Assembly: GCA_041650855.1 (NCBI GenBank)
Contig: JBAZKJ010000002.1
Span: 284,280-348,279 of the forward strand
Direction: 5' to 3'
Length of the DNA: 64,000 nucleotides
Origin: Candidatus Margulisiibacteriota bacterium
Lineage (GTDB): Bacteria; Margulisbacteria; WOR-1; O2-12-FULL-45-9; XYB2-FULL-48-7
Below, one piece after another: positions 1 to 59,671 of the stretch (position 1 is the stretch's first letter; each line of letters begins with the position of its first letter). The translations under genes were made by a program, and so were the position numbers. A model generated the notes under the pieces. It was not told the DNA's origin. It was given only the letters and a program-made list of their open reading frames with translations, and searched no databases.

Positions 1-2288
<2,288 letters not shown>

Positions 2289-2318
2289 GGTCTTAAACGG
2301 CGGAGCAGGTGACTCTCT

Positions 2319-4051: not shown

Positions 4052-4058
4052 GGGCTAA

Positions 4059-6207: not shown

Positions 6208-6244
6208 AACTTAATTATATCACCCTTTACCGGGGAAAATCGGC

Positions 6245-6273
6245 TTGCGCCGGACGGCAGGATTTATTATAAT
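6245..6273 (+). promoter_or_regulatory. Sigma-70-like promoter (TTGCGC-N17-TATAAT) for the hydrogenase operon
   Basis: -35 TTGCGC at 6245-6250 and -10 TATAAT at 6268-6273 with a 17-nt spacer, in the divergent rarA / hydrogenase intergenic region. Confidence 0.4.
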
Positions 6274-6282
6274 ATATGTAAC

Positions 6283-6305
6283 AACCCCACCTAACGGGTG
6301 GGGTT
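6283..6305 (+). promoter_or_regulatory. GC-rich 9-bp stem-loop in the 5' leader of the hydrogenase operon
   Basis: AACCCCACC-taacg-GGTGGGGTT perfect inverted repeat, 18 nt upstream of the ATG at 6324. Confidence 0.4.
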
Positions 6306-6323
6306 TGTCGTGTCAAACGCCTG

Positions 6324-36345: not shown

Positions 36346-36346
36346 A

Positions 36347-39981: not shown

Positions 39982-40009
39982 TATAATAACCGGCAGACCC
40001 GCAAAAGGA

Positions 40010-44901: not shown

Positions 44902-44909
44902 GGCGTTAA

Positions 44910-46136
44910 ATGCTCATTAAGTTGGCGTGGCGTAATATTTTCCGCAATTTCCGCCGGACTTTCTTTACCTTTATTGCTATTGCGATCGGCCTGGGACTGA
45001 TGCTGCTGGCCGACTCGATGCTCTCCGGGATCGATGCCCAATCTTTCGCCAAGATCATTGATTATGAGACCGGCCACGTTAAGATCTTCCAGCGCGGTTA
45101 CCAGCAAGATAAAGATAATCTGCCGCTTGATAAATTGATCACCGCGCCGGCCGGGGTGATCGATACTGTCCGCCGCGACCCCGCAGTTGCCGGCGTCACT
45201 TCCCGGGTCAACTTCCGGATCATGCTTTCCGACCGGATCGACCAGATCCCGGCGATCGGCATTGCCGTTAACCCGGCCGATGACGAGTCGGTCTTTCTGT
45301 TGAAGCAGGGGTTAACGCAAGGCGAGTTCCTGGTCAGCTCCGAAGAGGCGATGCTGGTCGGCAAGAAGCTGGCCGATGATTTTGGGGTCGGGGTCGGCGA
45401 CTACCTGACCGTTCTGGCCAGGACCAAATACGATACTTACCAGGCGCTCGACCTCCGGATCAAGGGGGTCCTGCAGACCGAGGATCCCCAGATCGACTGG
45501 TATTCGATCGTCATCCCGCTCGACGTCGGCCAGAGCTCGCTCGACCTGAGCCGGGGTGTCACAGAGATCGACATCAAGTTGAAGGATATCAACGCAGTCG
45601 ACCAGTTCAAGAATAAATTGGCCAAAGAACTTCCCGGCTTAGAGATCGCCACCTGGAAAGAGATGGCCGAAGATGTCCTGGCCATCTCCAAGGCAAAATA
45701 TTCCGGCACCTTCACGATCTTCGGCTGCATTGTTTTGATCGCCCTGATCGGCATCACCAACACGATCCTGATGGCCGCCTTTGAGCGGGTCAAGGAGATC
45801 GGGATGATGGGGGCGATGGGGATGAAACGCGGCCAGATCGTCCGGCTCTTTGTCCTGGAAGGGACAATGATCGGCCTGCTCGGCAGCATCACCGGTTGCA
45901 TCCTTGGCGCTCTGCTGATCGGTTTCTGGATGGTCCCGTACGGGATCGATTTTTCCGCCTTTATGCGGGAGATGGGGCCGATCGGCTACCGGACCACCGG
46001 CAAGTTCACCGGCCAGTGGCATCTGATCATGTTTCCGGTCGCTTTTATCTTTGGTCTGGTCGTGTCAGCCTTGACCAGTATTTATCCGGCCAGAGTGGCT
46101 TCACGAATGGAGCCGAGCGAGGCGTTGAGGAAATAA
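44910..46136 (+). CDS. ABC transporter permease, FtsX/MacB/LolE-like (type A)
   Basis: 4 TM helices, large periplasmic loop, FtsX C-terminal domain. 408 aa. Confidence 0.75.
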   Translation: MLIKLAWRNIFRNFRRTFFTFIAIAIGLGLMLLADSMLSGIDAQSFAKIIDYETGHVKIFQRGYQQDKDNLPLDKLITAPAGVIDTVRRDPAVAGVTSRVNFRIMLSDRIDQIPAIGIAVNPADDESVFLLKQGLTQGEFLVSSEEAMLVGKKLADDFGVGVGDYLTVLARTKYDTYQALDLRIKGVLQTEDPQIDWYSIVIPLDVGQSSLDLSRGVTEIDIKLKDINAVDQFKNKLAKELPGLEIATWKEMAEDVLAISKAKYSGTFTIFGCIVLIALIGITNTILMAAFERVKEIGMMGAMGMKRGQIVRLFVLEGTMIGLLGSITGCILGALLIGFWMVPYGIDFSAFMREMGPIGYRTTGKFTGQWHLIMFPVAFIFGLVVSALTSIYPARVASRMEPSEALRK

Positions 46137-46137
46137 G

Positions 46138-47361
46138 ATGTTCAGATTAGCTTTAAGGAATGTTTTGCGCAATAAAAGGCGGTCGTTCCTGACCGGGCTC
46201 TCGATCGCCTTCGCGGTGATGGTCGTCATCTTTCTCTGGACGTTCGTTTCCGGGATCATCAGCGGGATGTTCCAGAATTACGTGACCAATTCGGTCGGCC
46301 ATATCCGGATCATGAACGCCGATTATCGGAAAAGGGAGACGATGCTGCCGCTTAGCGCCACGGTTTATAATTACCAGAATGTCATCAATCAGATCGAACG
46401 GGACCCGAACGTGAAGCTGGCGACCGGCCGGATCAAGTTCGGCGTCCTGATGGATATCAAGGGGAGGAACAAGCCGGTCCTCGGCGTCGGCCTTGATCCG
46501 GTCAAGGAAGAGTCGGTCATCGGTCTGTCAGGCAAAATGGTGTCCGGTAGGATGTTCGCCGGCGGGACCAGCGAAACGGTCGTCGGCCTCGGCCTGGCCA
46601 AAGAGTTGGGCCTGAAAGCGGGCGACACGCTCACGGTCATCACCCAGACGGCGCACGGCTCGCTCTCCGGCTTGAACCTGAAAGTCGCCGGCATCTTTAG
46701 CCTCGGTGTCCCTTCGATCGATAACCGGACCTTCTATTTGCCGCTTAATCAAGCGCAGCAGCTCCTTGACCTCGATGGCCGGGTGACCGAGATCTTTTTG
46801 CTGATCAGGGATCATGATCGGGCGGTCGAAGTGGCAAAAAAGCTGGACAAGACCTTGCCGTCCGGACTAATTGCCGTGCCGTGGCAGGCGAACGGCTTTT
46901 TGTTCTACATGATGGTGCTGATCAAGTACATGTACGCCGGGATCTACGCCTTCATCCTTCTCCTGGCCAGCTTCACCATTCTCAACACGATGTTCATGGC
47001 GGTCATGGAGCGGACGCGCGAGATCGGGATGATGAAAGCGCTTGGGATGAAAGAAGGGGAGATCGGCCGGCTGATCACTTTGGAAGCGTTGATTCTCGGT
47101 GTAATGGCTAGTCTGGCCGGCGCCGCCGGTGGAACACTGCTCGCTTATTACGTCAGCACTGCCGGGATCGATTATACGGCGGCTTTTAAGAGCATCAGGG
47201 ATATCGAGATCCCGCTCTCTTATGTTTACAAAGGAGAATTCAGCTGGCTGACGATCGGGACCGGTTTTCTGATGGGAGTGTTTTTTTCCGTTCTGGCCTC
47301 GATCTTGCCCGCCCGGCGGGCAGCCAAACTGGAGCCAACCGAAGCGATGAAAGCGGGTTGA
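46138..47361 (+). CDS. ABC transporter permease, FtsX/MacB/LolE-like (type B)
   Basis: 407 aa FtsX-fold permease. Confidence 0.75.
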   Translation: MFRLALRNVLRNKRRSFLTGLSIAFAVMVVIFLWTFVSGIISGMFQNYVTNSVGHIRIMNADYRKRETMLPLSATVYNYQNVINQIERDPNVKLATGRIKFGVLMDIKGRNKPVLGVGLDPVKEESVIGLSGKMVSGRMFAGGTSETVVGLGLAKELGLKAGDTLTVITQTAHGSLSGLNLKVAGIFSLGVPSIDNRTFYLPLNQAQQLLDLDGRVTEIFLLIRDHDRAVEVAKKLDKTLPSGLIAVPWQANGFLFYMMVLIKYMYAGIYAFILLLASFTILNTMFMAVMERTREIGMMKALGMKEGEIGRLITLEALILGVMASLAGAAGGTLLAYYVSTAGIDYTAAFKSIRDIEIPLSYVYKGEFSWLTIGTGFLMGVFFSVLASILPARRAAKLEPTEAMKAG

Positions 47362-47408
47362 CGAGTTTCCGTTCCGGCCTATAATTGTCGGTAACAGGGG
47401 GAGATAAC

Positions 47409-48104
47409 ATGGCAGTCGTTAAAATGGAAAATGCGGTCAAGAACTATAAGGTAGGGAAGCTGGAGGTGCCGGCTTTAAGGGGGATCAACTTGGCGATCGA
47501 AAAGGGGGACTTTGCCGCCATTGCCGGCCCGTCCGGTTCCGGCAAGACGACAATGCTCAACCTGTTCGGCTGTCTCGACAAGCCGACTGGGGGGAAAGTC
47601 TTTATCGAGGAGCACGATATCATCACCCTGAAACCCGACCAGCTGGCCGACGTCCGGAACGAACATATCGGTTTCATCTTCCAGAGCTTTAACCTGATCC
47701 CGGTCCTGACCGCGTTTGAGAACGTCGAATTCCCTTTAATTCTCTTAAAAAAGGACGGGCCGGGCATCCGCAAGAAGAAAGTGATGGAGATGCTGGCTTC
47801 GGTCGGCATCGCCGATCTGGCCAACCGACTGCCCAGCGAAATGAGCGGCGGACAGCAGCAGCGGGTGGCGATCGCCCGGGCGCTGGTCAAGAATCCCGAT
47901 TACGTCCTGGCCGACGAGCCGACGGCGAACATCGATACCAAGACCGGCCACGAGATCCTTGATCTGATGCAGGCGATGAACAAGAACCTCGGCACGACGT
48001 TCATCTTTTCCACCCACGATCCCAAAGTGATGGAGCATGCCCGGCGGCTGATCCGCGTCCGCGACGGACAAATAGAATCGGATGTTGCTCAAGCTGGCGT
48101 ATAG
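47409..48104 (+). CDS. ABC transporter ATP-binding protein (LolD/MacB-NBD-like)
   Basis: Walker A GPSGSGKTT, signature LSGGQQQRVAIARAL, Walker B VLADEPT. GGGGGAG RBS. Start at MAVVKMEN. Confidence 0.88.
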   Translation: MAVVKMENAVKNYKVGKLEVPALRGINLAIEKGDFAAIAGPSGSGKTTMLNLFGCLDKPTGGKVFIEEHDIITLKPDQLADVRNEHIGFIFQSFNLIPVLTAFENVEFPLILLKKDGPGIRKKKVMEMLASVGIADLANRLPSEMSGGQQQRVAIARALVKNPDYVLADEPTANIDTKTGHEILDLMQAMNKNLGTTFIFSTHDPKVMEHARRLIRVRDGQIESDVAQAGV

Positions 48105-49305
48105 AAATATCTTCCGTAATTTCCGGCGGACGCTGTTGACCCTGTCGGCGCTGGCCTTTGCCATTTTAATGTTGATCATCTTCGATTCTTACTTTAAAGG
48201 CCTCGATCTTAAAACCTATGAGAAAATAATCAATTACGAAAACGCCCACCTCAAGTATTTTCCGCAAGGTTACAAGGAAGATATCGATAATTTGCCCATC
48301 GAGAAAGCTTTTGACCCGGCGCCGGTGCTGGCGGTCTTGCGGGCCGACCCGCTGGTCCAGGCGGCGGCGCCCCGGCTCAGCTTTCGTTCGACGTTGTCAA
48401 ACGGCGTCGACCAGTTGCCGGCCGTCGGGTTGGCGGTCGATCCGGCCCAGGATCAGACCGTTTTTACGATGAAGCAAGCGGTTAATCAGGGAGAGTATCT
48501 GGCTGGGGCCGAAGAAGCAATGGTCGTTGGCGCTGACTTGGCGAAGGATTTCAATGTTAGTCCGGGTGATATGCTGACCGTTCTCTGCCGGACCAAGTAT
48601 TCGACTTTCCAGGCGCTCGATCTGCCAATTAAGGGGGTTATCAAGAGCGATGACTATGCCATTGATACGAACTCGATCATTGTCCCCCTGGGGTTGGCCC
48701 AACAAGCGCTGGATCTGGGGCAGGGTGTGACCGAAGTTAATATTTTACTGAAAGATGTCAAACAGATCGACGCTTTTAAGAAGCAATACGCTGGCCGCTT
48801 CCCCGGCTTGGAACTCTGGACCTGGAAAGAAGTGGCGGAAGATGTTGTCGCCCATTCCGAATCTCATGCCATGAGCAAGAACATCATTTTCGCCTGCATA
48901 ATCATTATTGCGCTGGTCGGGATCAGCAATACTATCCTGATCGCGGCGTTCGAGCGGACGCGGGAGATCGGCATGCTTGGCGCCATGGGGATGAAGCGCC
49001 GGCAGATCGTTGGGCTTTTTGTCCTGGAAGGGACGATGATCGGGGTGGTGGGGAGCGCGCTCGGTTGTCTGGCCGGATTATTGCTGGTGGTATTCTGGAC
49101 CACCCGGTTCGGTTTTGACCTTTCTTTCGCGATGAGGGACTGGGGCAATATTGGTTTTCGGACCGGAGTGTTTTTAGGCGCCTGGAATCTTGACCTGATC
49201 CCGCAGGTCTTTGGTTTCGGAGTAGTGGTCGCCTTGCTGTCCAGCATCTATCCGGCGCTGGTCGCTTCGCGCCTGGAGCCGACCGAGGCCTTGAGAAAAT
49301 ATTAG
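48082..49305 (+). CDS. ABC transporter permease, FtsX-like (type A')
   Basis: 407 aa. N-terminus MLLKLAYRNIFRNFRRT is near-identical in pattern to 44910. Confidence 0.75.
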   Translation: MLLKLAYRNIFRNFRRTLLTLSALAFAILMLIIFDSYFKGLDLKTYEKIINYENAHLKYFPQGYKEDIDNLPIEKAFDPAPVLAVLRADPLVQAAAPRLSFRSTLSNGVDQLPAVGLAVDPAQDQTVFTMKQAVNQGEYLAGAEEAMVVGADLAKDFNVSPGDMLTVLCRTKYSTFQALDLPIKGVIKSDDYAIDTNSIIVPLGLAQQALDLGQGVTEVNILLKDVKQIDAFKKQYAGRFPGLELWTWKEVAEDVVAHSESHAMSKNIIFACIIIIALVGISNTILIAAFERTREIGMLGAMGMKRRQIVGLFVLEGTMIGVVGSALGCLAGLLLVVFWTTRFGFDLSFAMRDWGNIGFRTGVFLGAWNLDLIPQVFGFGVVVALLSSIYPALVASRLEPTEALRKY

Positions 49306-49306
49306 G

Positions 49307-50530
49307 ATGAATTTTATCTTAAAGCTGGCGATCAGGAATGTTTTCCGCAATACCCGGCGGTCGATACTGACCGGCGCTTCGATCATGTTTTCGGTGGCGA
49401 TCTTGATCTTTGCCTGGTCGTTTATCGAAGGAACGGTCAAGGACATGTCCGACGCTTATATCCGGTTCCAGAGCGGGCATGTCCGGGTCTTGACCAAAGA
49501 GTTCGCCAGGCGTGAAAAGATGTTCCCGCTCCAGTATTCGATCGCCGATTATCGCGCGGTGCAGCGGCAGATCGCGGCCACTCCCGGGATCAAGACCGTT
49601 ACCGGCCGGCTCAAGTTCGGCGTCCTCTTGGATTACGCGGGGAATACCAAGCAGACGTTGGGCATGGGGATCGAACCGGCGGCGGAGGAGTCGATCCTTG
49701 AGCTTAATAAGAATATTGTGCAGGGACGGGTGATCCGCGCCGGCACAGACGAAGTCAATATCGGAGTGAACATGGCCAAGGACCTTAAACTTAAGCTGGG
49801 GGACATCTTAACGGTTGTGACCCAGACCGCCTACGGTTCCTTGAGCGCCAAGAACTTTACCGTGGTCGGGATCTTTAATTTTTCTTCGCCAACCATTGAT
49901 CGGAAGGTCTTTTTGATCCCGATCGAGAGCGCGCAGTATTTGCTCGAACTCCCGGGCAGCGCCAGCGAGATTTTCATTATCACCGAAAAAGCCGATGCCG
50001 CCCGCCGGGTGGCGTCAATGATCGCCGCCACGCTCGGACCGGGTTATAAAGTAACCGCCTGGCAGGACCAGAGCTCAATTTATATGTTTCTGGTCCTGAT
50101 CAAGTATCTGTACCTTATTATCTTGATCCTGATCGTTTTACTGTCCGCTTTTACCATTCTGAATACTATGTTCATGACGGTGCTGGAGCGGACGCGGGAG
50201 ATCGGGATGATGAAGGCGCTGGGGATGACCAACCGTCAGTTGATAATTATGGTGCTGCTGGAAGCGCTGGTGCTGGGCGCCTTGGCGAGTGTAATTGGGA
50301 TGTTTTTGGGTGCCGCTTTGAGCTACTATATGAGCATTTACGGCCTGGACGTGACTGCTTCCGTCGAGAAAATGGATTTTCCGACCTTTACTGTTTATTA
50401 CTGCGATTTCAGCTGGACCTATGTTTTCAGCGGTTTTGTGGTCGGCATGGCTTGTGCCGTATTGGCGGCGGTCTTTCCCGCTTTGCGGGCGGCAAAATTA
50501 GAACCAACGGAGGCGTTACATGAAATATAA
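49307..50530 (+). CDS. ABC transporter permease, FtsX-like (type B')
   Basis: 407 aa; paralog of 46138. Confidence 0.75.
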   Translation: MNFILKLAIRNVFRNTRRSILTGASIMFSVAILIFAWSFIEGTVKDMSDAYIRFQSGHVRVLTKEFARREKMFPLQYSIADYRAVQRQIAATPGIKTVTGRLKFGVLLDYAGNTKQTLGMGIEPAAEESILELNKNIVQGRVIRAGTDEVNIGVNMAKDLKLKLGDILTVVTQTAYGSLSAKNFTVVGIFNFSSPTIDRKVFLIPIESAQYLLELPGSASEIFIITEKADAARRVASMIAATLGPGYKVTAWQDQSSIYMFLVLIKYLYLIILILIVLLSAFTILNTMFMTVLERTREIGMMKALGMTNRQLIIMVLLEALVLGALASVIGMFLGAALSYYMSIYGLDVTASVEKMDFPTFTVYYCDFSWTYVFSGFVVGMACAVLAAVFPALRAAKLEPTEALHEI

Positions 50531-51290
50531 ACTCGCGATCCTGATGATCTGGGTGCTGGGGACCGGGTGCTGGGGGATCACGGGGGAGGAAATAATCAAT
50601 AAGGTCGACGCTAATATGACGTTCAAGACCGCCCGGTCGGAATCGAAGATGGTCATCCATGTTGATCAGGAAGTCAGGGAGAAGACGATGATCGGCTATG
50701 ATAAGGGGACCGATACGGGCTATGCTGAATTTCTCTCTCCGGCCAGGGACAAAGGGGTCAAGTACCTCAAGATCAAGGATAATATGTGGATGTACCTGCC
50801 GTCGGTCGATAAGATCATCAAGATCTCCGGGGCGATGCTCCGCCAGTCGATGATGGGCTCTGATTTTAGCTACGAGGATGCATTGGAGAGCAGCAAGCTG
50901 CTGGAAAAATACACCGCCACACTGATCTCCGAAGAGGTTGTCCCGCTTACTTTTCGCGAAGGGGAGAAGCTGGTCCGCCGCCAGCGGCGTTGCTATGTGG
51001 TTGACCTGACCGCCAAGGTCAAGGATGTCACTTATTTCCGCCGGGTCGTTTATGTCGATAAAGAACTGTTCGTCCCGGCCCGGGAAGACCTGTTCGCCCT
51101 CTCCGGAAAAAAATTAAAAGAAATGACCATGGGGGATGTGCGGCGCTATGGGGTGCGTTATTATCCGACCTACATGACGATGAGCAACCTGCTGCGGGCG
51201 AATTCCCAGACCGAACTGTTCACCACCAAGATCGAGTTCGACCTGCCTGTCGATGCCAAGGTCTTTACCCAGGGCAATTTGACAAAGTGA
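50520..51290 (+). CDS. LolA-like outer-membrane lipoprotein-sorting-family protein
   Basis: Signal/lipobox (…LGTGC), 256 aa; resembles LolA-like proteins that co-occur with FtsX/ABC modules. Confidence 0.5.
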   Translation: MKYKLAILMIWVLGTGCWGITGEEIINKVDANMTFKTARSESKMVIHVDQEVREKTMIGYDKGTDTGYAEFLSPARDKGVKYLKIKDNMWMYLPSVDKIIKISGAMLRQSMMGSDFSYEDALESSKLLEKYTATLISEEVVPLTFREGEKLVRRQRRCYVVDLTAKVKDVTYFRRVVYVDKELFVPAREDLFALSGKKLKEMTMGDVRRYGVRYYPTYMTMSNLLRANSQTELFTTKIEFDLPVDAKVFTQGNLTK

Positions 51291-52369
51291 GAAGACTGCT
51301 GGTGATAGGGGTCGGGTGGTGGATACTGGGGAGCGTGGCGTTCGGGCTGCAGCTTGCCGGTTCCTACGAGAACGACCTGCTGACCCTGCTCAAGAAGAAC
51401 GGCAGCGCCGGGCTTGGCGACCTGAACAAACTCCGGCTGAAGCTCGACCAGCAAGCCGGGGATAATTTGGCCATCCACCTTGAGCCCCGCTATTATTTCC
51501 TCGCCAAATCGCAAGCGATCTTGGTCACCGGCGCGACCGACCTGGACCAACTGGTCTTTGACCGGGCTTATGCCAAATACCGGACCGATCTTTGGTCGTT
51601 GACCGCCGGCAAACAGCGGATCGCCTGGGGGACCGGCTATATCTGGAACCCGGTCGACATTTTTAACCCGATGGTCCTCTCCTTCGCCGTCCGCGATGAA
51701 GATAAGACCAATGTCGAAGCGGTCCGCCTGGAAGTGCCGGTCGGTGAAGCGGGCGGGGTCGATGCGTTCGTAGTCGCGGGAAAACCCTGGGAGCAAACGG
51801 GGAGAGGGTTGCGGGTAAAGGGGAACACCGGATCGTTCGATCTGGCACTCAGCTACGTCGACCAGGGGACGCTCGGGCATCAGGTCGGTTTAGAAACAGC
51901 CGGCGATATCATTAAAGATGTCGGGGTAAGGGGAGAGATCGCGGTCAAGACCGTTCCGGGCCTGAACGGGTATGTCGCTCAAGCGGTCGCTGGCGGCGAT
52001 TACACGCTCGATAACGGGATCGGCCTCAACTGCGAGTATTATTACAACGGCCTTGGTAGCCGGAACAGCGGCAATTATAACTGGGGAACGGCGGAATCGG
52101 TCGGCATGGATTATCTCTATCTTAGCGGCAATAAGATCATCGATGAGATCACGACCGTTACTGTTTCCTTGTTGACCAACCTTGATGACCAGAGCTACAT
52201 GGTCTACCCGCAATACGCCCGCAATATCGGCCAGAACCTCGACTTATACCTGGAGGGGATGTGGCTGGGCGGTCCGGACGGGTCGGAATTCGTGCCGCCT
52301 TCTTCGGCTGATCCGCTCGGTTTCGGCGGGAGCAAGATGGGGCTTGTCCGGCTCGTTTACTCATTTTGA
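51287..52369 (+). CDS. Putative outer-membrane beta-barrel protein
   Basis: Signal peptide, beta-strand-rich sequence, C-terminal aromatic (…LVRLVYSF). 360 aa. Confidence 0.4.
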   Translation: MRRLLVIGVGWWILGSVAFGLQLAGSYENDLLTLLKKNGSAGLGDLNKLRLKLDQQAGDNLAIHLEPRYYFLAKSQAILVTGATDLDQLVFDRAYAKYRTDLWSLTAGKQRIAWGTGYIWNPVDIFNPMVLSFAVRDEDKTNVEAVRLEVPVGEAGGVDAFVVAGKPWEQTGRGLRVKGNTGSFDLALSYVDQGTLGHQVGLETAGDIIKDVGVRGEIAVKTVPGLNGYVAQAVAGGDYTLDNGIGLNCEYYYNGLGSRNSGNYNWGTAESVGMDYLYLSGNKIIDEITTVTVSLLTNLDDQSYMVYPQYARNIGQNLDLYLEGMWLGGPDGSEFVPPSSADPLGFGGSKMGLVRLVYSF

Positions 52370-52376
52370 CCGGCGC

Positions 52377-52405
52377 GGAACCTTTTAACCGCCCCAATTG
52401 TCCAA
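52377..52405 (+). promoter_or_regulatory. ECF (sigma-E-type) promoter GGAACC-N17-GTCCAA upstream of the ECF sigma gene
   Basis: Direct match to the GGAAC-N16/17-GTCTAA class of ECF promoters. Confidence 0.5.
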
Positions 52406-52413
52406 TATAATGT

Positions 52414-52917
52414 ATGGCAACAGCCATGGCTGCATACGAATTCGACCGAGTTTATCTGGACCACAAGGACCAGGTCTGGCGCCTGGTTAATAAATATGTT
52501 GCCGGGCAGCATGACCGGGAGGACCTTTTTCAGGAGGTCTTTCTCAAGGTCCATCAGGCCTTGCCGAAATTCCGCGGCGACTCTTCCCTGGAGACCTGGC
52601 TCTACCGGCTCACGGTCAACACGGCGATCAATTACGTCAAGAAACAGAAACGCTATAAGCTTTTTTCCGTTCTCCTGGCCGGTTTAAGGTTCGAAGAGAG
52701 CATCCCGACATCGGACGTTGAAGCGACCAGCCTGCTCAAGCCGTTAGAGAAGCTCAACCCGCGCCAGCGGACCATTTTATTGCTGGCTGACGTCGAAGAG
52801 TACAAACTCGAGGAAATCGCCCGGCTAATGGAGTTGCCGGTCGGAACGGTTAAATCAAACCTGGCCCGGTCCCGGGCGATCATGCAAAAGGAGTTGAAGC
52901 AAAATGACCGATTATAA
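52414..52917 (+). CDS. RNA polymerase sigma-70 ECF-family sigma factor
   Basis: Region 2 (…DLFQEVFLKVHQALPKF…) and region 4 (…EEIARLMELPVGTVKS…). 167 aa. Confidence 0.8.
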   Translation: MATAMAAYEFDRVYLDHKDQVWRLVNKYVAGQHDREDLFQEVFLKVHQALPKFRGDSSLETWLYRLTVNTAINYVKKQKRYKLFSVLLAGLRFEESIPTSDVEATSLLKPLEKLNPRQRTILLLADVEEYKLEEIARLMELPVGTVKSNLARSRAIMQKELKQNDRL

Positions 52918-53185
52918 CGAATACCTGAAAGAGTTGAAAAAGGTCAGGGGTCCGTTCGATTCCGATCGGCTCTACCGCGCGATCAAGCAACGGGCAACTG
53001 TTAGGTCGGTCGCCTGGGTTTGGCCGACGGCGGTCTCGCTGGCCGGCGCGGTAGCCGTGCTTTTGGTCGGCCTGGTCTTTTTTGTCAACCTGGAGACCGG
53101 CAGTGACGAGACGATCGCCAGCTACCTGAACGAAGGCCAAGCCATTAACGGCAGTCCGCTGATTAGTTATGTTTTCGGCGAGTGA
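52904..53185 (+). CDS. Putative anti-sigma factor (single TM)
   Basis: 93-aa protein overlapping the sigma gene's 3' end, with one TM helix. Confidence 0.4.
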   Translation: MTDYNEYLKELKKVRGPFDSDRLYRAIKQRATVRSVAWVWPTAVSLAGAVAVLLVGLVFFVNLETGSDETIASYLNEGQAINGSPLISYVFGE

Positions 53186-53186
53186 G

Positions 53187-53215
53187 GGAACCTTTGCGTG
53201 ACTTGGCTTGTCTAA
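53187..53215 (+). promoter_or_regulatory. ECF (sigma-E-type) promoter GGAACC-N17-GTCTAA upstream of the spy-like / tolC / macAB genes
   Basis: -35 GGAACC at 53187-53192 and -10 GTCTAA at 53210-53215. Confidence 0.55.
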
Positions 53216-53247
53216 TCTGGCAGGATGGGTTTAAAGGAGGAAATAAT

Positions 53248-53694
53248 ATGAAAGTGATAATTAAGTCGGTAGCGTTAGCCTTGCTGGTGCTGGTCTTTAG
53301 CACCGCCTCTCTGGCGGCCCCGTGGTGGGGCGGCAAAGAGAGAAAGCGCGATCCGGGCAAACAGATCGCCCAGCGGTTAAACTTAACTGCCGCCCAACAG
53401 GCGCAATTCAAGACGGCCAGGGAGAAGCTGGAAAAGGAGAACAAGCCGTTATTCGACAAGATCAAGGAGCGTTCCGATAAATTACGGAGTGAGCTGGAAA
53501 AAGACAAGCCGGACCAGCGGCTGATCGAACAGTCGATCAAGGAGATCAACGGCTGGCGGACCGAGATCGAGATCAAACGGGTCAAGTCGTTGCTGGAGCT
53601 CAAGGCCAGCCTGACGCCGGACCAGCGGCAAAAATTCCAGGGGATGATGCGGCCGCCGCGCCCGCGCGGGTTTGGCCGCGGACCGCAGAAGTGA
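53248..53694 (+). CDS. Periplasmic Spy/CpxP-family (LTxxQ) stress protein
   Basis: Signal peptide; LNLTAAQQAQFK and LTPDQRQKFQ LTxxQ motifs. AAAGGAGG RBS. Confidence 0.6.
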   Translation: MKVIIKSVALALLVLVFSTASLAAPWWGGKERKRDPGKQIAQRLNLTAAQQAQFKTAREKLEKENKPLFDKIKERSDKLRSELEKDKPDQRLIEQSIKEINGWRTEIEIKRVKSLLELKASLTPDQRQKFQGMMRPPRPRGFGRGPQK

Positions 53695-53708
53695 TAGAAT
53701 AAACCAAG

Positions 53709-54941
53709 ATGTCCTGGCAGAGAACACTGACGATCGTTTGGGCCGCTGTCTATCTGGCGGCGTCCGCCTCAGCGCTCACCTGGCCGGAAGCGCTCAAACT
53801 GGCGCAGCGGAACAATCCGGAACTAAAGAGCGCCCGCAAACAGACCGAGGTGGCGCAGTGGAGCCTGTACCGCAGCTATTCGTCTTTCCTTCCCCAACTT
53901 TCGGCCAATGCTTCGACCGGCCAGTCGACCTCAGGAACCCCGGCGACGACGGCCAACAGCTCGTCTTACGGTTTAAGCGTCTCCCAGACGCTCTTTGCCG
54001 GCCTGGATAACTATTATAGCGCCCAGTCGGCCCGGGCCAGTTACGATTATTATCAAGCGGCCCTGCAAAAAGCGGAAGCCGACGTCTATTATCAGCTCCG
54101 GCAGGCGTTCGTCGACCTGGCGCTGGCCGACGAGAACGTCACCCTCTACCAGCAAATACTGGAGCGCCGGAAAAATAACAGCGATCTGATCGGGCTCCGC
54201 TACGACAGCGGCCGCGAAGACAAAGGGGCGCTGCTGCGGACGCAAGCCGACCAGGCCGATGCCGCCGCCGCCGTGACCGCGGCGGAAAGGGCCCAGACGT
54301 TGGCCGGCCTTAAGCTTTCCCAGCTCATCTCCGCGGAAGCGGCAAAGGCCGACGGCGAACTGGCCGCCAACAGCCTGGCCGTGCCCGATTACGGCCAGCT
54401 CCTGGCGGCGGCTCCGGCCAACGCGATGAACCTGAAACAATTAGAAAGGGCCGAGATCGCGCTGCGGCAGACGATCGGCGAGTTCCTGCCGAACGTTTCC
54501 CTGAGCGGTTCGTACCGCAGAAGCGGCACCGATTGGCCGCCGCAGAGCAACAGCAACAGCTGGTCGCTGAACCTGTCTTATTCATTGTTCCCGGGCGGGG
54601 CGAACATTGCGGATCGGGTCATTTATACGGCGCAGTACGATCAGGCCAAACAGGATTTCCAGAACGCCAGCAACGACCTCCGCTACGGCTTGCAGTCCGC
54701 TTACCAGGCGCTGCTCGACGCGCTCGAGACGGAAAAGACCGCCCAGCTGTCGCTCTCTGCCGCCGCCCTGCGGGCGGAGATCGCCCGGACAAAGTACATC
54801 AACGGCCTGGTCAGCTACGACGAATGGGACCGGATCGAGAACGACTACATCAGCGCCCAGCGGAATTTATTATTACGGAAGAAAGCGGCCCTTTATGCCG
54901 AAGCGGCGTGGTACAACTCATACGGAGGTTACGTTAAATGA
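53709..54941 (+). CDS. TolC-like outer-membrane efflux protein
   Basis: Signal peptide and two OEP repeats. 410 aa. Confidence 0.7.
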   Translation: MSWQRTLTIVWAAVYLAASASALTWPEALKLAQRNNPELKSARKQTEVAQWSLYRSYSSFLPQLSANASTGQSTSGTPATTANSSSYGLSVSQTLFAGLDNYYSAQSARASYDYYQAALQKAEADVYYQLRQAFVDLALADENVTLYQQILERRKNNSDLIGLRYDSGREDKGALLRTQADQADAAAAVTAAERAQTLAGLKLSQLISAEAAKADGELAANSLAVPDYGQLLAAAPANAMNLKQLERAEIALRQTIGEFLPNVSLSGSYRRSGTDWPPQSNSNSWSLNLSYSLFPGGANIADRVIYTAQYDQAKQDFQNASNDLRYGLQSAYQALLDALETEKTAQLSLSAAALRAEIARTKYINGLVSYDEWDRIENDYISAQRNLLLRKKAALYAEAAWYNSYGGYVK

Positions 54942-55879
54942 AAATCAGAAATTTGGGGGTCTTGTTCGTCGGGGTTTTAATGCTGACTTCCTGCGCTCCT
55001 AAGAAAGAGGTCCCGCTCGAGCTGGTGAGCGCCGCCAAGGGGGATATCGAATCGAGCATCCCGGCAACCGGCACGGTGATGCCGCGCAATCGCCTGGAGA
55101 TCAAGCCGCCGGTCGCCGGCCGGATCGAATCGGTCCTCGTCAGCGAGGGGCAGGAAGTTTACAAAGGACAGATCATCGCCTGGATGAGCTCGCTCGACCG
55201 GGCGACCTTGATCGATGCCGCCCGGGCCAAGGGGGAAGAAGAGGTCAAGCGGTGGGAAGAAATGTACAAACCGACGCCGGTCATCGCGCCGATCAACGGT
55301 TTCATTATCCAGCGGGGCGTGGAAGCGGGGCAAAGTCTGACCAGTAACGACGTTGTCCTGGTGATGGCCGATAAATTGATCGTTAAGGCGTCGATCGACG
55401 AGACCGACATCGGCCGGATCAAGGTTGGCCAGCAGGTCAAGATCGTCCTAGATGCTTATCCCAAAGAAGAGATCAACGGGAGCGTGGAGCATATCGCCTA
55501 CGAATCCAAGGTCGTCAGCAATGTCACCGTTTACGAAGTGGACGTTATCCCGGATACCGTGCCGTCATTCTTCCGCGCCGGAATGAGCGCCACGGTCAAT
55601 TTTTCCCAGAACGCTCGGGCAGGGGTCCTGACCGTGCCGCTCAAGGCGATCAAGAAGCGGGGTAAAGCGGTCTACGTTTTCAAGCCGAGCGCCGATAACA
55701 AGACCGCTCAGGCAGTCCAGATCGAGACCGGGCTGGAGAACGGCGACAACATCGAGGTCATTTCCGGCCTGGCCGAGGGGGAGAAAGTGGCCGTCCCGAC
55801 CAAAGCGATGACCGACGCGCTTTCCCAGCGGCGCGGCCCGCCCAATCTGAATCCCTTCGGTACCCAGCGTAGCCGCTAA
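54938..55879 (+). CDS. macA: Efflux periplasmic adaptor (MacA/HlyD family)
   Basis: Lipobox-like LTSC, biotinyl-lipoyl and beta-barrel domains. 313 aa. Confidence 0.75.
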   Translation: MKIRNLGVLFVGVLMLTSCAPKKEVPLELVSAAKGDIESSIPATGTVMPRNRLEIKPPVAGRIESVLVSEGQEVYKGQIIAWMSSLDRATLIDAARAKGEEEVKRWEEMYKPTPVIAPINGFIIQRGVEAGQSLTSNDVVLVMADKLIVKASIDETDIGRIKVGQQVKIVLDAYPKEEINGSVEHIAYESKVVSNVTVYEVDVIPDTVPSFFRAGMSATVNFSQNARAGVLTVPLKAIKKRGKAVYVFKPSADNKTAQAVQIETGLENGDNIEVISGLAEGEKVAVPTKAMTDALSQRRGPPNLNPFGTQRSR

Positions 55880-57837
55880 TGAGCTTGATCGAGATCAAAG
55901 GCCTTTGTAAAACTTATTACATCGGCGGCAAAATACCGGTCTACGCCCTGCGCGACGTTTCTCTGTCGATCGAACCGGGAGAATTTGTGGCCATTATGGG
56001 GCCTTCCGGTTCCGGTAAATCGACCCTCTTGGCCGTTCTCGGTTTACTGGACCGGCCGGATTGCGGCGAATACCGGATCTTGGGCAAGGAAGTTTCCCGT
56101 TTGACCGAAAGGGAAACGTCGCGTCTGCGCAATCATCTTCTCGGTTTTGTCTTCCAGGCGTTCAATCTGCTCCCCCGGCTCGATATCGTCACCAATACGA
56201 TGCTCCCTTTTGTCTATGATGAGGGGATCACGGAGGCGAGCCGTAAAGCGGCGAAAGAACTGCTGGGCAGGGTCGGGCTCGGCGATCGTCTCCGCCACCG
56301 GCCGACGGAACTGTCGGGCGGACAGCAACAGCGGGTAGCGCTGGCCCGGGCGCTGGCCAACAAACCGCTGGTGATCATGGCCGACGAACCGACGGGAAAC
56401 CTGGATACCAAGTCCGCCCAGGAGATCATCAATTTATTCAAAGAGATCAACCGCCAGGGTAATACCATTATCATGGTGACCCATGAACCGAACCTGGCGA
56501 ACGAAGCCAGCCGGCGGATCACGCTCTCCGACGGCCGGATCGTTTCCGACGAGCGATTGCGGGAAACGGCAGGCGGCGCCGTTTCTCTGCCGGAACTCAA
56601 GCCGCGCAATTTTAATCTCTTTTCCCTGAGCCGTTTGGCGAACTATTTCAATGAGGCCTTTCTCTCTTTGCTGACGAACAAGCTCCGCTCATTCCTGTCG
56701 ATCCTCGGCGTGGTCATCGGCGTCGGTGCGGTCATCGCCATGCTGGCGATCGGGACCGGCGCCCAGCGGCAGGTGGAACAGTCGCTCTCGGCGCTCGGGA
56801 CCAATTTGCTCAGCGTCCGGACGTCGTTCCGGCAGGGCGGGATCTCGCTCGGCTCCGATTCGGTCCCCCGGTTCAATCTCGAGGATTTGAAGGCGCTGCA
56901 GGCGCTCGATGGGGTGAAGTACGTTATCCCTTACGTCCAGGGGAGGGGGCAGGCCGTTTACGGCAACCGGAACTGGAGCACCAGTATTAACGGGACGAGC
57001 GTCGATTACCAGTATGTTCGCGACGCGGTTCCGGTCCAGGGGAGATTCTTTACCCAGACGGAAGAGCACCTGCGTGCCAAGGTCGCCGTTCTCGGTAAGC
57101 AGGTGGCCGACCAGCTTTTCCCGGACGGGAACCCCCTCGGCAAGTGGATCAAGATCAACCGGATCAATTTCCAGGTGATCGGCGTCCTGCCGGAAAAAGG
57201 GGGAGGCGGGTTCATGAACCAGGATGACCAGATCTTTGTTCCGCTCTCGACCGCGATGCACCGGCTGCTCGGCCGCGATTACATCAGCAATTTCGACGTC
57301 CAGGCCCAGAGTGCCGACGACTTGACCGGCCTGGCCGAAGAGATCGGTCCGCTGTTGGTTCGGCTCCATCGCTTGCCCGCTTCCCTGTCCGACAGCTACG
57401 ACGTCCGGAACATGGCCGACATCCAGAAAGCGGCGAGCGAGACGGTCCAGACTTTTTCTTTCCTGCTGGGGGCGATCGCCGCGGTCAGTCTGCTCGTTGG
57501 CGGCATCGGCATCATGAACATCATGCTCGTCATGGTGATGGAGCGGACGCACGAGATCGGGCTGCGCAAGGCGCTCGGCGCCGAAGACCGCGACATCATG
57601 ACCCAATTCCTGGTCGAGGCGGTATTGATCTGCGGTCTGGGCGGGCTGATCGGAGTAGGGGTGGGCGGCATCATTTCGTTCTCGATCGGCGCGGCTGCCG
57701 GCTGGTCGGTCGTGATCACCGCGCAGTCGGTCCTGCTCGCTTTTGTCTTTTCGGTGCTGGTCGGGGTGGTGTTCGGCCTCTGGCCTGCCAGAAGAGCCTC
57801 GCGGCTGCTGCCGATCGAAGCGCTCCGCTACGAGTAA
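55879..57837 (+). CDS. macB: MacB-type ABC transporter (fused ATPase-FtsX permease)
   Basis: Walker A GPSGSGKST, LSGGQQQRVALARAL, then 4-TM FtsX permease. 652 aa. Confidence 0.88.
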   Translation: MSLIEIKGLCKTYYIGGKIPVYALRDVSLSIEPGEFVAIMGPSGSGKSTLLAVLGLLDRPDCGEYRILGKEVSRLTERETSRLRNHLLGFVFQAFNLLPRLDIVTNTMLPFVYDEGITEASRKAAKELLGRVGLGDRLRHRPTELSGGQQQRVALARALANKPLVIMADEPTGNLDTKSAQEIINLFKEINRQGNTIIMVTHEPNLANEASRRITLSDGRIVSDERLRETAGGAVSLPELKPRNFNLFSLSRLANYFNEAFLSLLTNKLRSFLSILGVVIGVGAVIAMLAIGTGAQRQVEQSLSALGTNLLSVRTSFRQGGISLGSDSVPRFNLEDLKALQALDGVKYVIPYVQGRGQAVYGNRNWSTSINGTSVDYQYVRDAVPVQGRFFTQTEEHLRAKVAVLGKQVADQLFPDGNPLGKWIKINRINFQVIGVLPEKGGGGFMNQDDQIFVPLSTAMHRLLGRDYISNFDVQAQSADDLTGLAEEIGPLLVRLHRLPASLSDSYDVRNMADIQKAASETVQTFSFLLGAIAAVSLLVGGIGIMNIMLVMVMERTHEIGLRKALGAEDRDIMTQFLVEAVLICGLGGLIGVGVGGIISFSIGAAAGWSVVITAQSVLLAFVFSVLVGVVFGLWPARRASRLLPIEALRYE

Positions 57838-57840
57838 GCG

Positions 57841-58554
57841 CTACTTCCGCAAACCGCAGCGAACGATGATCACCGCCTGGTTGTCGGGGGTTTCCTGCAA
57901 AAAGATCTGGCAGACCAGCTCGTTCTGCCGGTAACCGTTCATCGCCTCGGTGACGTTCAGCTGGTCGGCGCTAAACCCCATTTTAACCAGGGCGGAACCG
58001 ATCGCGCCGGCCGTTTGGTTGACGGCGGTAAAATCCCCGTCCACCGGCACGGTCGCGGTCATTTCAAACCCGTCGACGTCGACCTGGTCGCCGCCCGGCA
58101 GCAGCCAGGGAAAGGTCGTGGTCAGCGGGCCGGAGAAGACCAGGCCGCTCCGTTTGCGCAGGAAACGGAAGACCGGATTGCAGCGCCGGCTCCGGTCGCT
58201 CCCCCGCAGGACGACTGCGGTCCCGTCCTGGACGTAACGCAGAGCGTTCCCCTTGATCAGGAGCGCGGAGCATTCATAAGTGTTGTTCTCGTTGGCGAAC
58301 AGGAGGAGCTTGTCGCCGTTGATCGTGTAGGTCCCCGATTCATAAGGACGGCCGGTCAGCGTCGTGTTGAAATAGTGAACGTCGTCCGCGCCGGCCGAAA
58401 AATAGTAATCGGAAGCGTCGGCGCCGGCCACGGTCTGCCATTCGCCCAGGATCTCGTCGGCCGAGGGGACATGCCCCTTTTGGTTGAACGAGCAGGCGGA
58501 CAAGATCACGCCGAGCGTCAATAAAAAGGCGGCCAGGCGTATCGCGGTTTTCAT
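57841..58554 (-). CDS. Lipoprotein, unknown function
   Basis: MKTAIRLAAFLLTLGVILSAC lipobox. 237 aa. Confidence 0.5.
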   Translation of the reverse strand: MKTAIRLAAFLLTLGVILSACSFNQKGHVPSADEILGEWQTVAGADASDYYFSAGADDVHYFNTTLTGRPYESGTYTINGDKLLLFANENNTYECSALLIKGNALRYVQDGTAVVLRGSDRSRRCNPVFRFLRKRSGLVFSGPLTTTFPWLLPGGDQVDVDGFEMTATVPVDGDFTAVNQTAGAIGSALVKMGFSADQLNVTEAMNGYRQNELVCQIFLQETPDNQAVIIVRCGLRK

Positions 58555-58570
58555 GGCAGCGTCAATTTTA

Positions 58571-59671
58571 TCATAAATTGGCGCGCGGGGGCGCTTGATT
58601 GCCGAAACGGAGCCGGTTGAAAAGGGCGAACGCCTGCTGGTCGGTCAGCGCGACGATGTTGTCGATCACCGCCCGGGCGTCGCCCCGGTGCTGCTCCGCG
58701 AAATAACCGATCAGGACGTTGAGGCAGGCGGCGATATTTTTGCGGAATTCGACGTTGCGCCGGCTGTAGTAAATGTGCTGGTAATTGAAGTCAAAAAGCC
58801 GGTCGAGCGGTTCGCGGACCAGCGGGCTCAGCGCGATCTCGCCCCGGCCGGCGCTCATCTCGATCACGTTCGTCGCCAGCGCGTTGATCATCTCGCTGGT
58901 CTGGCTGCCCAGGATCTCGGTGATCCCGGACGGCAGCTGATCGCGGCTGACCAGGCCGAGCCGGATACCGTCCTCCAGGTCGAGCGGCAGGTAAGAAAGG
59001 CGGTCGGCAAGCCTGACCACGCACGCTTCCAGGGTCGAGGCCGGCTCGTTGTCGCGCAGAGAATATTTGCCGGGGCGGAGGACGGCGTCCTTGGTCTCGC
59101 CGTCGTGTTTCAATATGCCTTCCTGCACCTCATAGCTCAGGTTCAGGTCGGCGATCTCCCGCACGATCCGCAAACTTTGCCGGTTATGCTTGAACGGTTC
59201 GCCGAGCTTTTCCCGGCTGTATTCGCTCAAGATCTTTTCCCCCTCGTGGCCGAACGGCGAATGGCCCAGGTCGTGCCCCAGGGCGATCGCCTCGGCCAGG
59301 TCTTCGTTCAAGCCCAGCGCCCGGCAGATATCGCGGGCGAGCTGGGCGACCTTGATCACGTGAAAGAGCCGGGTATGCACCTGCTGGCTGCTCGGCAGCG
59401 GCAGCGATTCCGGCGAAAAGACCTGGGTCTTGCCCGACAGGGCGGTAAAATAGGGCGAATAGATGATCCGGTCGCGGTCGCGGACAAAAGCGGTCCGGTA
59501 TTCGCAGGGGAGCTCGAGGCGCGCCCGGCCGAGCGACTCCACGCTTTTGGTCGCGTGCCGCGCCAGGCCGGCCAATTCGGCCATCTCGACCTGCGGCCGC
59601 AAAACCGGCAAGGTTCTCGGCCTGCCGGCCAAGAGCCGCAAATAGTGCTGGACATTGCTGGCGATCTTCAT
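58571..59671 (-). CDS. dgt: dGTP triphosphohydrolase-like HD-domain protein
   Basis: HD motif (…IALGHDLGHSPFGHEGE…). Start taken at MKIASNV (the 59833 start is an extension). Confidence 0.75.
   Translation of the reverse strand: MKIASNVQHYLRLLAGRPRTLPVLRPQVEMAELAGLARHATKSVESLGRARLELPCEYRTAFVRDRDRIIYSPYFTALSGKTQVFSPESLPLPSSQQVHTRLFHVIKVAQLARDICRALGLNEDLAEAIALGHDLGHSPFGHEGEKILSEYSREKLGEPFKHNRQSLRIVREIADLNLSYEVQEGILKHDGETKDAVLRPGKYSLRDNEPASTLEACVVRLADRLSYLPLDLEDGIRLGLVSRDQLPSGITEILGSQTSEMINALATNVIEMSAGRGEIALSPLVREPLDRLFDFNYQHIYYSRRNVEFRKNIAACLNVLIGYFAEQHRGDARAVIDNIVALTDQQAFALFNRLRFGNQAPPRANL

Follow-up and report, generated by a model that had tools for sequence, protein, structure and literature searches.

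When a sequence motif that resembles a promoter for a sigma factor of the extracytoplasmic function (ECF) type occurs twice in close succession, once in front of the gene for such a sigma factor and once just behind the gene for its putative antagonist, an obvious question arises: does this sigma factor read both copies, and, if so, what does it control? The question is posed by a 64,000-nucleotide stretch of DNA (hereafter, the window) from Candidatus Margulisiibacteriota bacterium (assembly GCA_041650855.1, contig JBAZKJ010000002.1, positions 284,280 to 348,279 of the forward strand). The Margulisiibacteriota are the sister lineage of the Cyanobacteria and, to our knowledge, the regulation of their genes is almost entirely unexplored. 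Here we argue that the locus very probably represents a self-contained ECF module of Margulisiibacteriota/Saganbacteria, in which the sigma factor would read two RpoE-like promoters, namely, P1 in front of its own gene (autoregulation) and P2 in front of the output genes. The elements of the module are, in the order of their appearance:

52377..52405, + strand: P1, putative autoregulatory ECF promoter (-35 GGAACCTTT at 52377-52385, -10 TGTCCAA at 52399-52405)
52406..52411, + strand: TATAAT hexamer abutting the P1 -10, exact match
52414..52917 (alternative ATG at 52426), + strand: ECF (group IV) sigma factor gene, Pfam Sigma70_r2 and Sigma70_r4_2
52904..53185, + strand: 93-aa single-pass membrane protein, putative anti-sigma factor, overlapping the end of the sigma gene by 14 nt
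53187..53215, + strand: P2, putative ECF-dependent target promoter (-35 GGAACCTTT at 53187-53195, -10 TGTCTAA at 53209-53215)
53233..53240, + strand: Shine-Dalgarno (SD) sequence AAAGGAGG of the LTXXQ gene, read from the sequence
53248..53694, + strand: periplasmic LTXXQ protein of the Spy/CpxP/ZraP/CnrX fold, 148 aa, PF13801 and PF07813
53709..54941, + strand: TolC-type outer-membrane factor (Pfam OEP, E=1.3e-47, two repeats)
54938..55879, + strand: MacA-type periplasmic adaptor (membrane-fusion protein), Pfam HlyD_D23 and HlyD_3
55879..57837, + strand: MacB-type fused ATP-binding cassette (ABC) ATPase/permease, Pfam ABC_tran, MacB_PCD and FtsX

Both motifs lie exactly where the first-pass annotation of this DNA had placed them. 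P1 consists of GGAACC (52377-52382), a 17-nt spacer and GTCCAA (52400-52405), and P2, which begins 2 nt past the stop codon of the putative anti-sigma gene, of GGAACC (53187-53192), a 17-nt spacer and GTCTAA (53210-53215). As the copies are separated by 810 bp, their earlier description as "130 kb-independent" is meaningless. The same annotation had conceded that a motif common at random positions would undo its interpretation; within the window, this is not borne out. The pattern GGAACC-N16-17-GTCYAA has exactly 2 matches on the two strands of the window, P1 and P2, against an expectation of 0.04, and none of 100 dinucleotide-preserving shuffles reached 2. With two mismatches allowed, 7 extra matches appear in the window, compared to 8.6 expected, i.e. 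the chance level; the G+C content of the window is 58.3%. A position weight matrix (PWM) made of two blocks and trained on 36 sites of other genomes, the window sites being left out, assigned 31.3 bits to P2 and 29.7 bits to P1, with the next independent match in the window at 12.5 bits, a value that falls inside the range of the maxima over 20 shuffles (8.3 to 17.6 bits). The sequence common to P1 and P2 is limited to the two blocks, the longer flanks being different. The motif shows the features of an ECF-type promoter: it is bipartite (-35 and -10), has a spacer of about 16-17 nt and is conserved before the sigma operon in orthologous loci. For comparison, the consensus of the Escherichia coli sigma-E is GGAACTT at -35 and GTC at -10 (PMC6648896), and the discovery of ECF promoters in general rests on the autoregulation of most ECF sigma factors via a conserved upstream promoter (PMC3817407).

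The evidence that carries this assignment is comparative. Species-representative genomes were scanned with an alignment of the sigma factor, which yielded 22 orthologous loci (L001-L022), with 44-79% identity of the sigma factor, that come from Margulisiibacteriota, Saganbacteria/WOR-1 and a single bin carrying the label Omnitrophota, along with 58 outgroup ECF loci, nearly all from Bacteroidota and with approximately 30% identity. Counts out of 23 refer to the 22 loci plus the window; these loci share ancestry and so are not phylogenetically independent, and their retrieval via the sigma gene introduces an ascertainment bias. Two positions within these loci share one motif, GGAAC[C/T]TTT-N13-(T)GTCTAA. 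The equivalent of P1 is present in 22 of the 23 loci, 45-50 nt 5' of the sigma start: it is of the exact type in 20, two loci have -10 variants (GCCTAA in L011 and ATCTAA in L017), and in L008 the P1-type copy is displaced, sitting upstream of an extra gene that precedes the sigma gene. The equivalent of P2, located 1-4 nt past the anti-sigma stop, accounts for 19 sites plus a GACTAA variant (L012) in the 23 loci. Of 38 sites, 33 have GGAAC and GTC starting 23 nt apart. The information content is high in the GGAAC-YTTT and TGTCTAA blocks only and close to zero in the spacer and the flanks; a modest signal 5' of the P2 -35 was traced to the codons for the anti-sigma C-terminus, which are conserved. 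Because the same bipartite motif recurs at the same places while the spacers and flanks have diverged, P1 and P2 are read as ECF promoters, a case of phylogenetic footprinting in its classical form. The 58 outgroup loci contain no PWM match of 18 bits or more, and the synteny is absent there as well. The earlier proposal of autoregulation combined with a second promoter for the Spy-like gene is borne out to the extent that the motif occupies both positions in about 20 of the 22 orthologous loci, which strongly supports a predicted arrangement of an autoregulated P1 and a target P2 with RpoE-like specificity.

Calling this system a regulon, as had been done, overstates the case, since the evidence covers the local operon only. 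Throughout the 298 kb of the 23 loci, the only other PWM matches of at least 25 bits form a divergent pair in L008, where two ECF motifs stand back to back at 5408(-) and 5421(+), the pair scoring 33.5 and 29.4 bits. The minus-strand motif faces the gene of a 404-aa PKD/Ig-repeat lipoprotein (4138-5352, minus strand), a possible further member of the regulon.

What kind of sigma factor is encoded next to P1? The protein matches Sigma70_r2 with 67.9 bits and Sigma70_r4_2 with 56.2 bits, lacks regions 1 and 3, and belongs to ECF group IV, with 98.7 bits against the NCBIfam model TIGR02937 (cutoff 42.9). The RpoE equivalog model TIGR02939 yields 91.9 bits versus a cutoff of 236.15, and no equivalog cutoff of any NCBIfam sigma model is reached by this protein. 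The nearest solved structures are AlgU (6in7), RpoE (1or7) and SigW, with E-values of approximately 1e-20 to 1e-18, CnrH being a far weaker match (E=4e-4). As judged from these matches, the sigma factor is RpoE-like in its predicted specificity and is not an RpoE orthologue. It is 100% identical to a protein of a Candidatus Margulisiibacteriota metagenome-assembled genome that is annotated from the ATG at 52426 (163 aa); an exact-sequence lookup of the 167-aa form starting at 52414 gave no match, the public form being the one of 163 aa. The other gene identities proposed at first (LTXXQ, tolC, macA and macB), as well as that of the sigma gene, are likewise confirmed by Pfam and NCBIfam, and the putative anti-sigma factor corresponds to a 93-aa open reading frame (ORF) without a family.

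The next issue is what P2 might drive. Past P2, at a distance of 15-35 nt, comes a strong SD sequence, and the orthologues are alike in this respect. The LTXXQ gene is separated from tolC by a gap of 14 nt, corrected from the 15 nt given before, macA starts inside the end of tolC, and macB does so inside that of macA. The TolC-type protein scores 112 bits with TIGR01844, under the 225-bit cutoff; the MacA-type protein has 129.8 bits with TIGR01730 (cutoff 94.9) and a lipoprotein-like N-terminus, LTSC. The MacB-type protein aligns with the E. coli model NF007826 over the full length (residues 2-650) with 493.7 bits, under the 966-bit equivalog cutoff, and, with the genes of a membrane-fusion protein and of an outer-membrane factor adjacent to its own, it shows the traits of a MacB-type (type VII) exporter. 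From 52400 to 57837, a consensus scan of the + strand detected no terminator-like site. The unit is taken to end at 57837 because a convergent gene ends 3 nt past macB. A sigma-70 consensus scan produced chance-level sites only in this region. One of the sigma-70-like sequences, TTGGCC-17-TAGAAT with an upstream TG (53672-53700), falls within the 3'-terminal part of the LTXXQ gene, just before tolC, and could be an internal constitutive promoter of the pump, such matches being at the chance level.

The composition of the module varies between the loci in a telling way. By tblastn, the sigma factor and the LTXXQ protein occur together in 21 of the 22 loci, with no LTXXQ match in L018, and tolC-macA-macB follow directly downstream in about 15 of the 22. 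In five loci (L007, L013, L020, L021 and L022), the sigma and anti-sigma genes, P2 and the LTXXQ gene are followed by unrelated or convergent genes; L017 is like these five pump-less loci, but without P2. Since those five loci keep P2 together with the LTXXQ gene, the latter is the conserved predicted target of P2. The invariant core of the module is, by gene content, the sigma factor, the putative anti-sigma factor and the LTXXQ protein, and tolC-macAB is a frequent, optional and seemingly swappable payload in the sub-lineage of the window. The previously defined MacAB-TolC efflux unit thus holds insofar as P2 does precede LTXXQ-tolC-macA-macB, and fails insofar as the pump, being missing from five loci, is not the conserved target. 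In L003, P2 (at 7501) has been kept directly before the LTXXQ gene despite an opposite-strand insertion of 3.4 kb (4000-7465) that parts this gene from the anti-sigma gene; a GH3 glycosidase and a nucleotidyltransferase of the AbiEii/DUF6036 type are among the inserted genes. In L002, L008 and L016 (and similarly in L017), the LTXXQ gene, with its own SD sequence and no P2, comes directly after the anti-sigma gene and is presumably read from P1. Two loci have genes of EF-hand proteins (three EF-hands, no signal peptide) inserted in the module: in L008 (5497-5949) past the P1-type promoter and ahead of the sigma gene, and in L010 (7431-7961) between the LTXXQ gene and tolC.

The LTXXQ protein matches PF13801 (Metal_resist) with 55 bits (cutoff 29.2) and PF07813 with 34.7 bits (cutoff 24.3), carries a signal peptide whose AxA site is conserved, followed by the conserved mature N-terminus WWGG, and contains two LTXXQ motifs, LTAAQ and LTPDQ. 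Its AlphaFold2 (AF2) model, with a predicted local distance difference test (pLDDT) value of 72, is a long helical hairpin (H48-83 and H90-120). The family scores, the two motifs and the hairpin place it in the LTXXQ/Spy-CpxP-ZraP-CnrX family. A Foldseek comparison with the PDB returned the same fold in all top matches (NccX, CnrX, STV, Spy, ZraP and CpxP), with E-values of only about 0.1; superposition of the model on CnrX gives a template modelling (TM) score of 0.74 and a root-mean-square deviation of 2.4 Å. A word-based search found 8 relatives, and the NCBI name is "periplasmic heavy metal sensor".

This name brings up the alternative that the locus encodes a metal-resistance system similar to CnrYXH-CnrCBA, wherein the LTXXQ protein would bind metal and release the sigma factor, and the pump would export metal ions. 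Such a possibility is consistent not only with the name, but also with the best Pfam match being PF13801 (Heavy-metal resistance), with NccX and CnrX as the top fold matches, with the layout of ECF gene, anti-sigma gene at +1 and PF13801 gene at +2 that has been tied to heavy-metal stress for ECF281 and ECF290 (PMC7826278), and with the EF-hand Ca-binding proteins in the module at two loci. However, the metal ligands of CnrX, which are His42, His46, Glu63 and His119, plus Met123 (PMC6851896), have no counterpart here: the LTXXQ protein of the window contains zero His and zero Cys, no His or Cys is conserved among the 22 LTXXQ orthologues, and 8 of these 22 sequences (the window included) have no His at all. 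The signal peptide looks cleavable rather than serving as a membrane anchor, the pump is a MacB-type ABC exporter and not one of the resistance-nodulation-division (RND) or heavy-metal efflux (HME) type, and the sigma factor is closer to RpoE/AlgU (E ~1e-20) than to CnrH. With the ligands absent and a signal-peptidase-like AxA site in place of the membrane anchor, the LTXXQ protein was rejected as a CnrX-type metal sensor, and a metal-resistance system of this kind seems unlikely overall. Since no His or Cys is conserved, the name "periplasmic heavy metal sensor" is not supported and probably misleading, and a Spy/CpxP-like role of the LTXXQ protein appears more likely. A co-occurrence of ECF and LTXXQ genes in the literature on Prevotella intermedia turned out to be uninformative, the genes being non-adjacent there.

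The third component of the core, the putative anti-sigma factor, is unannotated. An ORF of this type is present in 21 of the 22 related loci (there is none in L013), starts between -35 and +53 nt from the sigma stop and encodes 75-114 aa, mostly about 90-97 aa. A full-database search with a hidden Markov model (HMM) of the family recovered only 69 clusters at 50% identity, of 87-104 aa and matched end to end; none of these 69 members has a Pfam domain, and the 4 relatives found by a word-based search are all named "hypothetical protein". In the alignment, an N-terminus of about 35 aa, with the pattern M..Y..YI..LK and then D...MY..I, precedes the single transmembrane helix, and the periplasmic tail (residues ~70-93) carries a tandem motif, ..YVFxQ..(I)NGxP..xYVFx[D/E]-COOH. 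Tyr residues Y4, Y74 and Y89 are the most conserved and almost invariant. Assignment to the class I anti-sigma factors, which have an anti-sigma domain (ASD) of about 60-90 aa (zf-HC2, RskA, RseA_N), finds no backing, there being no match to these families. As to the CnrY-like class II, the length and topology fit, the helices come from a low-confidence AF2 model, and no CnrY sequence similarity was detected in the PDB. In CnrY itself, the cytoplasmic domain comprises 45 aa, and the C-terminus, which is periplasmic, docks into CnrX (PMC6851896). Position, topology and co-conservation with the sigma factor argue well for the 93-aa protein being an anti-sigma factor that would hold the sigma factor at the membrane.

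The working of the module can then be envisaged as follows. The adjacent sigma factor would recognise GGAAC[C/T]TTT-N13-TGTCTAA and, as the conserved linkage of the motif with its gene gives good reason to expect, read both promoters. P1 would drive the sigma and anti-sigma genes, providing positive autoregulation, with the 93-aa protein keeping the sigma factor at the membrane, a role for which there is similarly good reason. The P2 transcript would carry the strong SD sequence and encode the soluble periplasmic LTXXQ protein, followed by the translationally coupled tolC-macA-macB genes of a tripartite ABC-type pump. Less securely, the LTXXQ protein would be both the main output and, by analogy with CnrX-CnrY and with the feedback of CpxP and ZraP on their sensors (CpxA in the case of CpxP), the periplasmic partner of the anti-sigma tail. 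Induction would raise the level of this chaperone or modulator and, where present, of the MacAB-TolC exporter. The signal would presumably come from the envelope, the candidates being misfolded envelope proteins, a toxic substrate of the pump, or cations; the label "envelope-stress-induced", which the first-pass annotation attached to the efflux unit, goes too far, as it draws on gene content only.

One can go a step further and consider, quite tentatively, that the 93-aa protein represents a new class of ECF anti-sigma factors, the tandem-YVF tail of which docks the soluble LTXXQ protein, so that titration of the chaperone controls the sigma factor. Misfolded envelope clients or pump substrates would pull the LTXXQ protein off the anti-sigma tail, and the freed tail would become exposed to proteolysis or to a conformational change. 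The ECF-induced LTXXQ protein would then close a negative-feedback loop, in a combination of CpxP-like logic with a CnrYX-like architecture. We know of no chaperone-titration mechanism of that kind described for ECF sigma factors.

Several observations weigh against the proposed self-contained module. First, the P1 -10 element ends 8 nt before the ATG at 52414 and 20 nt before the ATG at 52426, and the window has no SD sequence between this element and the two sigma starts. Because the -10 element is so close to the start codon, the P1 mRNA would be leaderless or nearly so, which is plausible and is counted here since the position of P1 requires it. The orthologues do not differ much: in most of them, 1-17 nt separate the P1 -10 from the sigma start codon, and room for an SD sequence after P1 is left only in L010, L014, L015 and L017. 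Second, the 93-aa protein has no match in Pfam, NCBIfam or the PDB, in single-sequence and profile searches alike, and its AF2 model (with N-terminal helices at H3-13 and from H20 onward) is of low confidence, with a pLDDT of 59. Third, the promoter specificity could also be that of a further ECF paralogue located elsewhere in the genome, and cross-talk has been documented between ECF groups whose promoters are similar (PMC3817407).

Two further features of the sigma start region deserve mention. Two in-frame ATG codons 12 nt apart are found at the sigma start of the window (52414/52426), of L001 (5989/6001) and of L004 (~5988/6001); in all three, the first ATG is only 8-9 nt past the -10 element, which suggests a leaderless transcript starting at the first AUG. 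In addition, TATAAT directly follows the -10 element in 7 of 23 P1 sites (the window, L002, L003, L006, L009, L013 and L016) and in none of the 19 P2 sites (p=0.011 by Fisher's test, for sites lacking phylogenetic independence). This hexamer is possibly an overlapping -10 element of the housekeeping, sigma-70 type that ensures basal expression of the sigma and anti-sigma genes, or else a context of the leaderless start.

The third of the above objections, taken to its end, leads to a scenario in which an ECF sigma factor encoded elsewhere in the genome reads P1 and P2, the local sigma factor being downstream in a cascade and not autoregulated. RpoE-like -35/-10 motifs are indeed common to several ECF groups; not only cross-talk between the groups, but also non-autoregulated ECF sigma factors transcribed by another ECF sigma factor are documented (PMC3817407), and the 64-kb window, the part of the genome that was inspected, holds no sigma paralogue. 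Nevertheless, the motif is linked to this very sigma gene in 22 of the 23 genomes, at 44-79% identity, and to the gene after the anti-sigma gene, and in L008 the P1-type motif has stayed upstream of the sigma gene despite the extra gene, so that the link to the operon is kept. Autoregulation being the simplest reading, the cascade has, in our judgement, a low probability, marginally below that of the metal-resistance system. That the repeated motif is no promoter at all, and instead a site bound by some other regulator, a relic of a mobile element or repeat, or a chance resemblance, is highly improbable: a simple sigma-70 scan also yields promoter-like sites at the chance level, but here two conserved blocks keep a fixed distance (22-24 nt) across spacers that are not conserved, always on the coding strand, between genes and 10-45 nt before a start codon, in agreement with the ECF -35 AAC and -10 GTC, chance would give 0.04 occurrences per window, no Rfam family matches the region 51000-59000, and P1 and P2 share the blocks only.

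The module of sigma, anti-sigma and LTXXQ genes borders on a large cluster of envelope genes:

35320-52369: upstream genes for a 2-hydroxyacid dehydrogenase, an MFS transporter, an AsmA-like protein, an alkyl sulfatase and a 975-aa protein, followed by the Lol-like set
44910-52369: Lol-like set of 4 paralogous FtsX/MacB_PCD permeases (407-408 aa), 1 ABC ATPase, a LolA_like protein and a 360-aa protein

The presence of four permeases per single ATPase is an unusual stoichiometry, and the 360-aa protein is weakly Wzi-like. It had been suggested that this operon might act as the physiological trigger of the efflux unit. The PWM scan found no ECF-type site before any of the genes at 35320-52369, nor elsewhere in the window, so that the Lol/AsmA cluster was rejected as a member of the regulon, and the suggested trigger loses its footing also on account of the loosely conserved adjacency. 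Homologues of the cluster genes occur within 6 kb 5' of the sigma gene in 4 other loci: the LolA_like and the 360-aa proteins in L001, the 360-aa protein in L014, AsmA directly upstream in L007 and homologues of the 975-aa protein in L015. In L001, at the species level the closest relative (79% identity of the sigma factor), ~4.3 kb of extra genes (1842-5930) separate the Wzi-like gene from the sigma promoter; by eye, from their translations, they look like a trehalose-phosphate synthase/phosphatase and a glycosyltransferase. Because of these extra genes, the adjacency of the sigma gene to the upstream operon is not fixed; by this comparison it is loosely conserved, and no regulatory link is seen. 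Read-through from the upstream operon into the sigma gene may occur, and a scan for terminators between the two found none.

The design of the system as a whole is that of a textbook ECF module, a well-known type of stress signalling, and is as such not surprising. One of its components, the candidate anti-sigma family, is unannotated, and the LTXXQ protein has probably been misnamed. What is gained is a sequence-level regulatory map for the uncultured phylum Margulisiibacteriota, with a promoter consensus, a predicted autoregulatory loop and an output operon. The functional emphasis shifts to a His-less protein of the Spy/CnrX fold as the conserved output and likely co-sensor, with the pump as a swappable part, and the small, uniform family of anti-sigma candidates, with its tandem C-terminal motif, offers itself as a target for structural work.

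How does this module relate to the known systems? An architectural parallel is CnrYXH-CnrCBAT of Cupriavidus metallidurans (ECF291, formerly ECF20), which also combines an ECF sigma factor, a short single-pass anti-sigma factor and a protein of the LTXXQ/CnrX fold, and in which two sigma-dependent promoters serve the regulatory genes and a tripartite envelope-spanning pump (PMC6851896); here, too, two promoters are predicted for the regulatory genes and a tripartite pump. In contrast to Cnr, the gene order is different, the LTXXQ gene sharing an operon with the pump genes behind P2, the LTXXQ protein has no His/Met metal site and is apparently soluble, the pump is of the ABC type (MacB) and not of the RND type, the sigma factor is related to CnrH only distantly (E=4e-4), and no sequence similarity to CnrY was found. 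When compared by gene layout, the module has the same order as ECF281 and ECF290 of the ECF classification 2.0, namely, ECF gene, anti-sigma gene at +1 and PF13801 gene at +2 (PMC7826278, Casas-Pastor et al. 2021); the anti-sigma factor, however, has neither the zinc finger of ECF281 nor the RskA-like domain of ECF290.

With RpoE/RseA of E. coli and AlgU/MucA of Pseudomonas aeruginosa, the module shares a nearly identical promoter, a predicted autoregulated operon of sigma and anti-sigma genes and outputs that act in the envelope. Unlike in these systems, the 93-aa putative anti-sigma factor is related to neither RseA nor MucA, and genes for RseB/RseC are missing; the output consists of the LTXXQ protein and MacAB-TolC, as compared to the regulon of outer-membrane protein folding and lipopolysaccharide under RpoE. 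The LTXXQ protein has the family and the fold in common with CpxP of the Cpx system, ZraP of ZraSR and Spy. These proteins are strongly induced outputs of their envelope-signalling systems, and CpxP and ZraP feed back on the sensors; the strong SD sequence and a P2 of its own would suit a similarly highly expressed output. CpxP, ZraP and Spy are governed by two-component regulators, whereas here an ECF sigma factor takes this place, and the feedback onto the anti-sigma factor is suggested by analogy. Finally, the pump resembles MacAB-TolC of E. coli in having a MacB with a fused nucleotide-binding domain, four transmembrane helices and a periplasmic domain, along with a membrane-fusion protein and an outer-membrane factor, and differs from it in that MacB is below the equivalog cutoff and the three components share one operon with the LTXXQ gene. 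A precedent for the control of such a pump by a sigma factor of the ECF type is provided by PvdRT-OpmQ, a MacB-type exporter under the ECF-type sigma factor PvdS.

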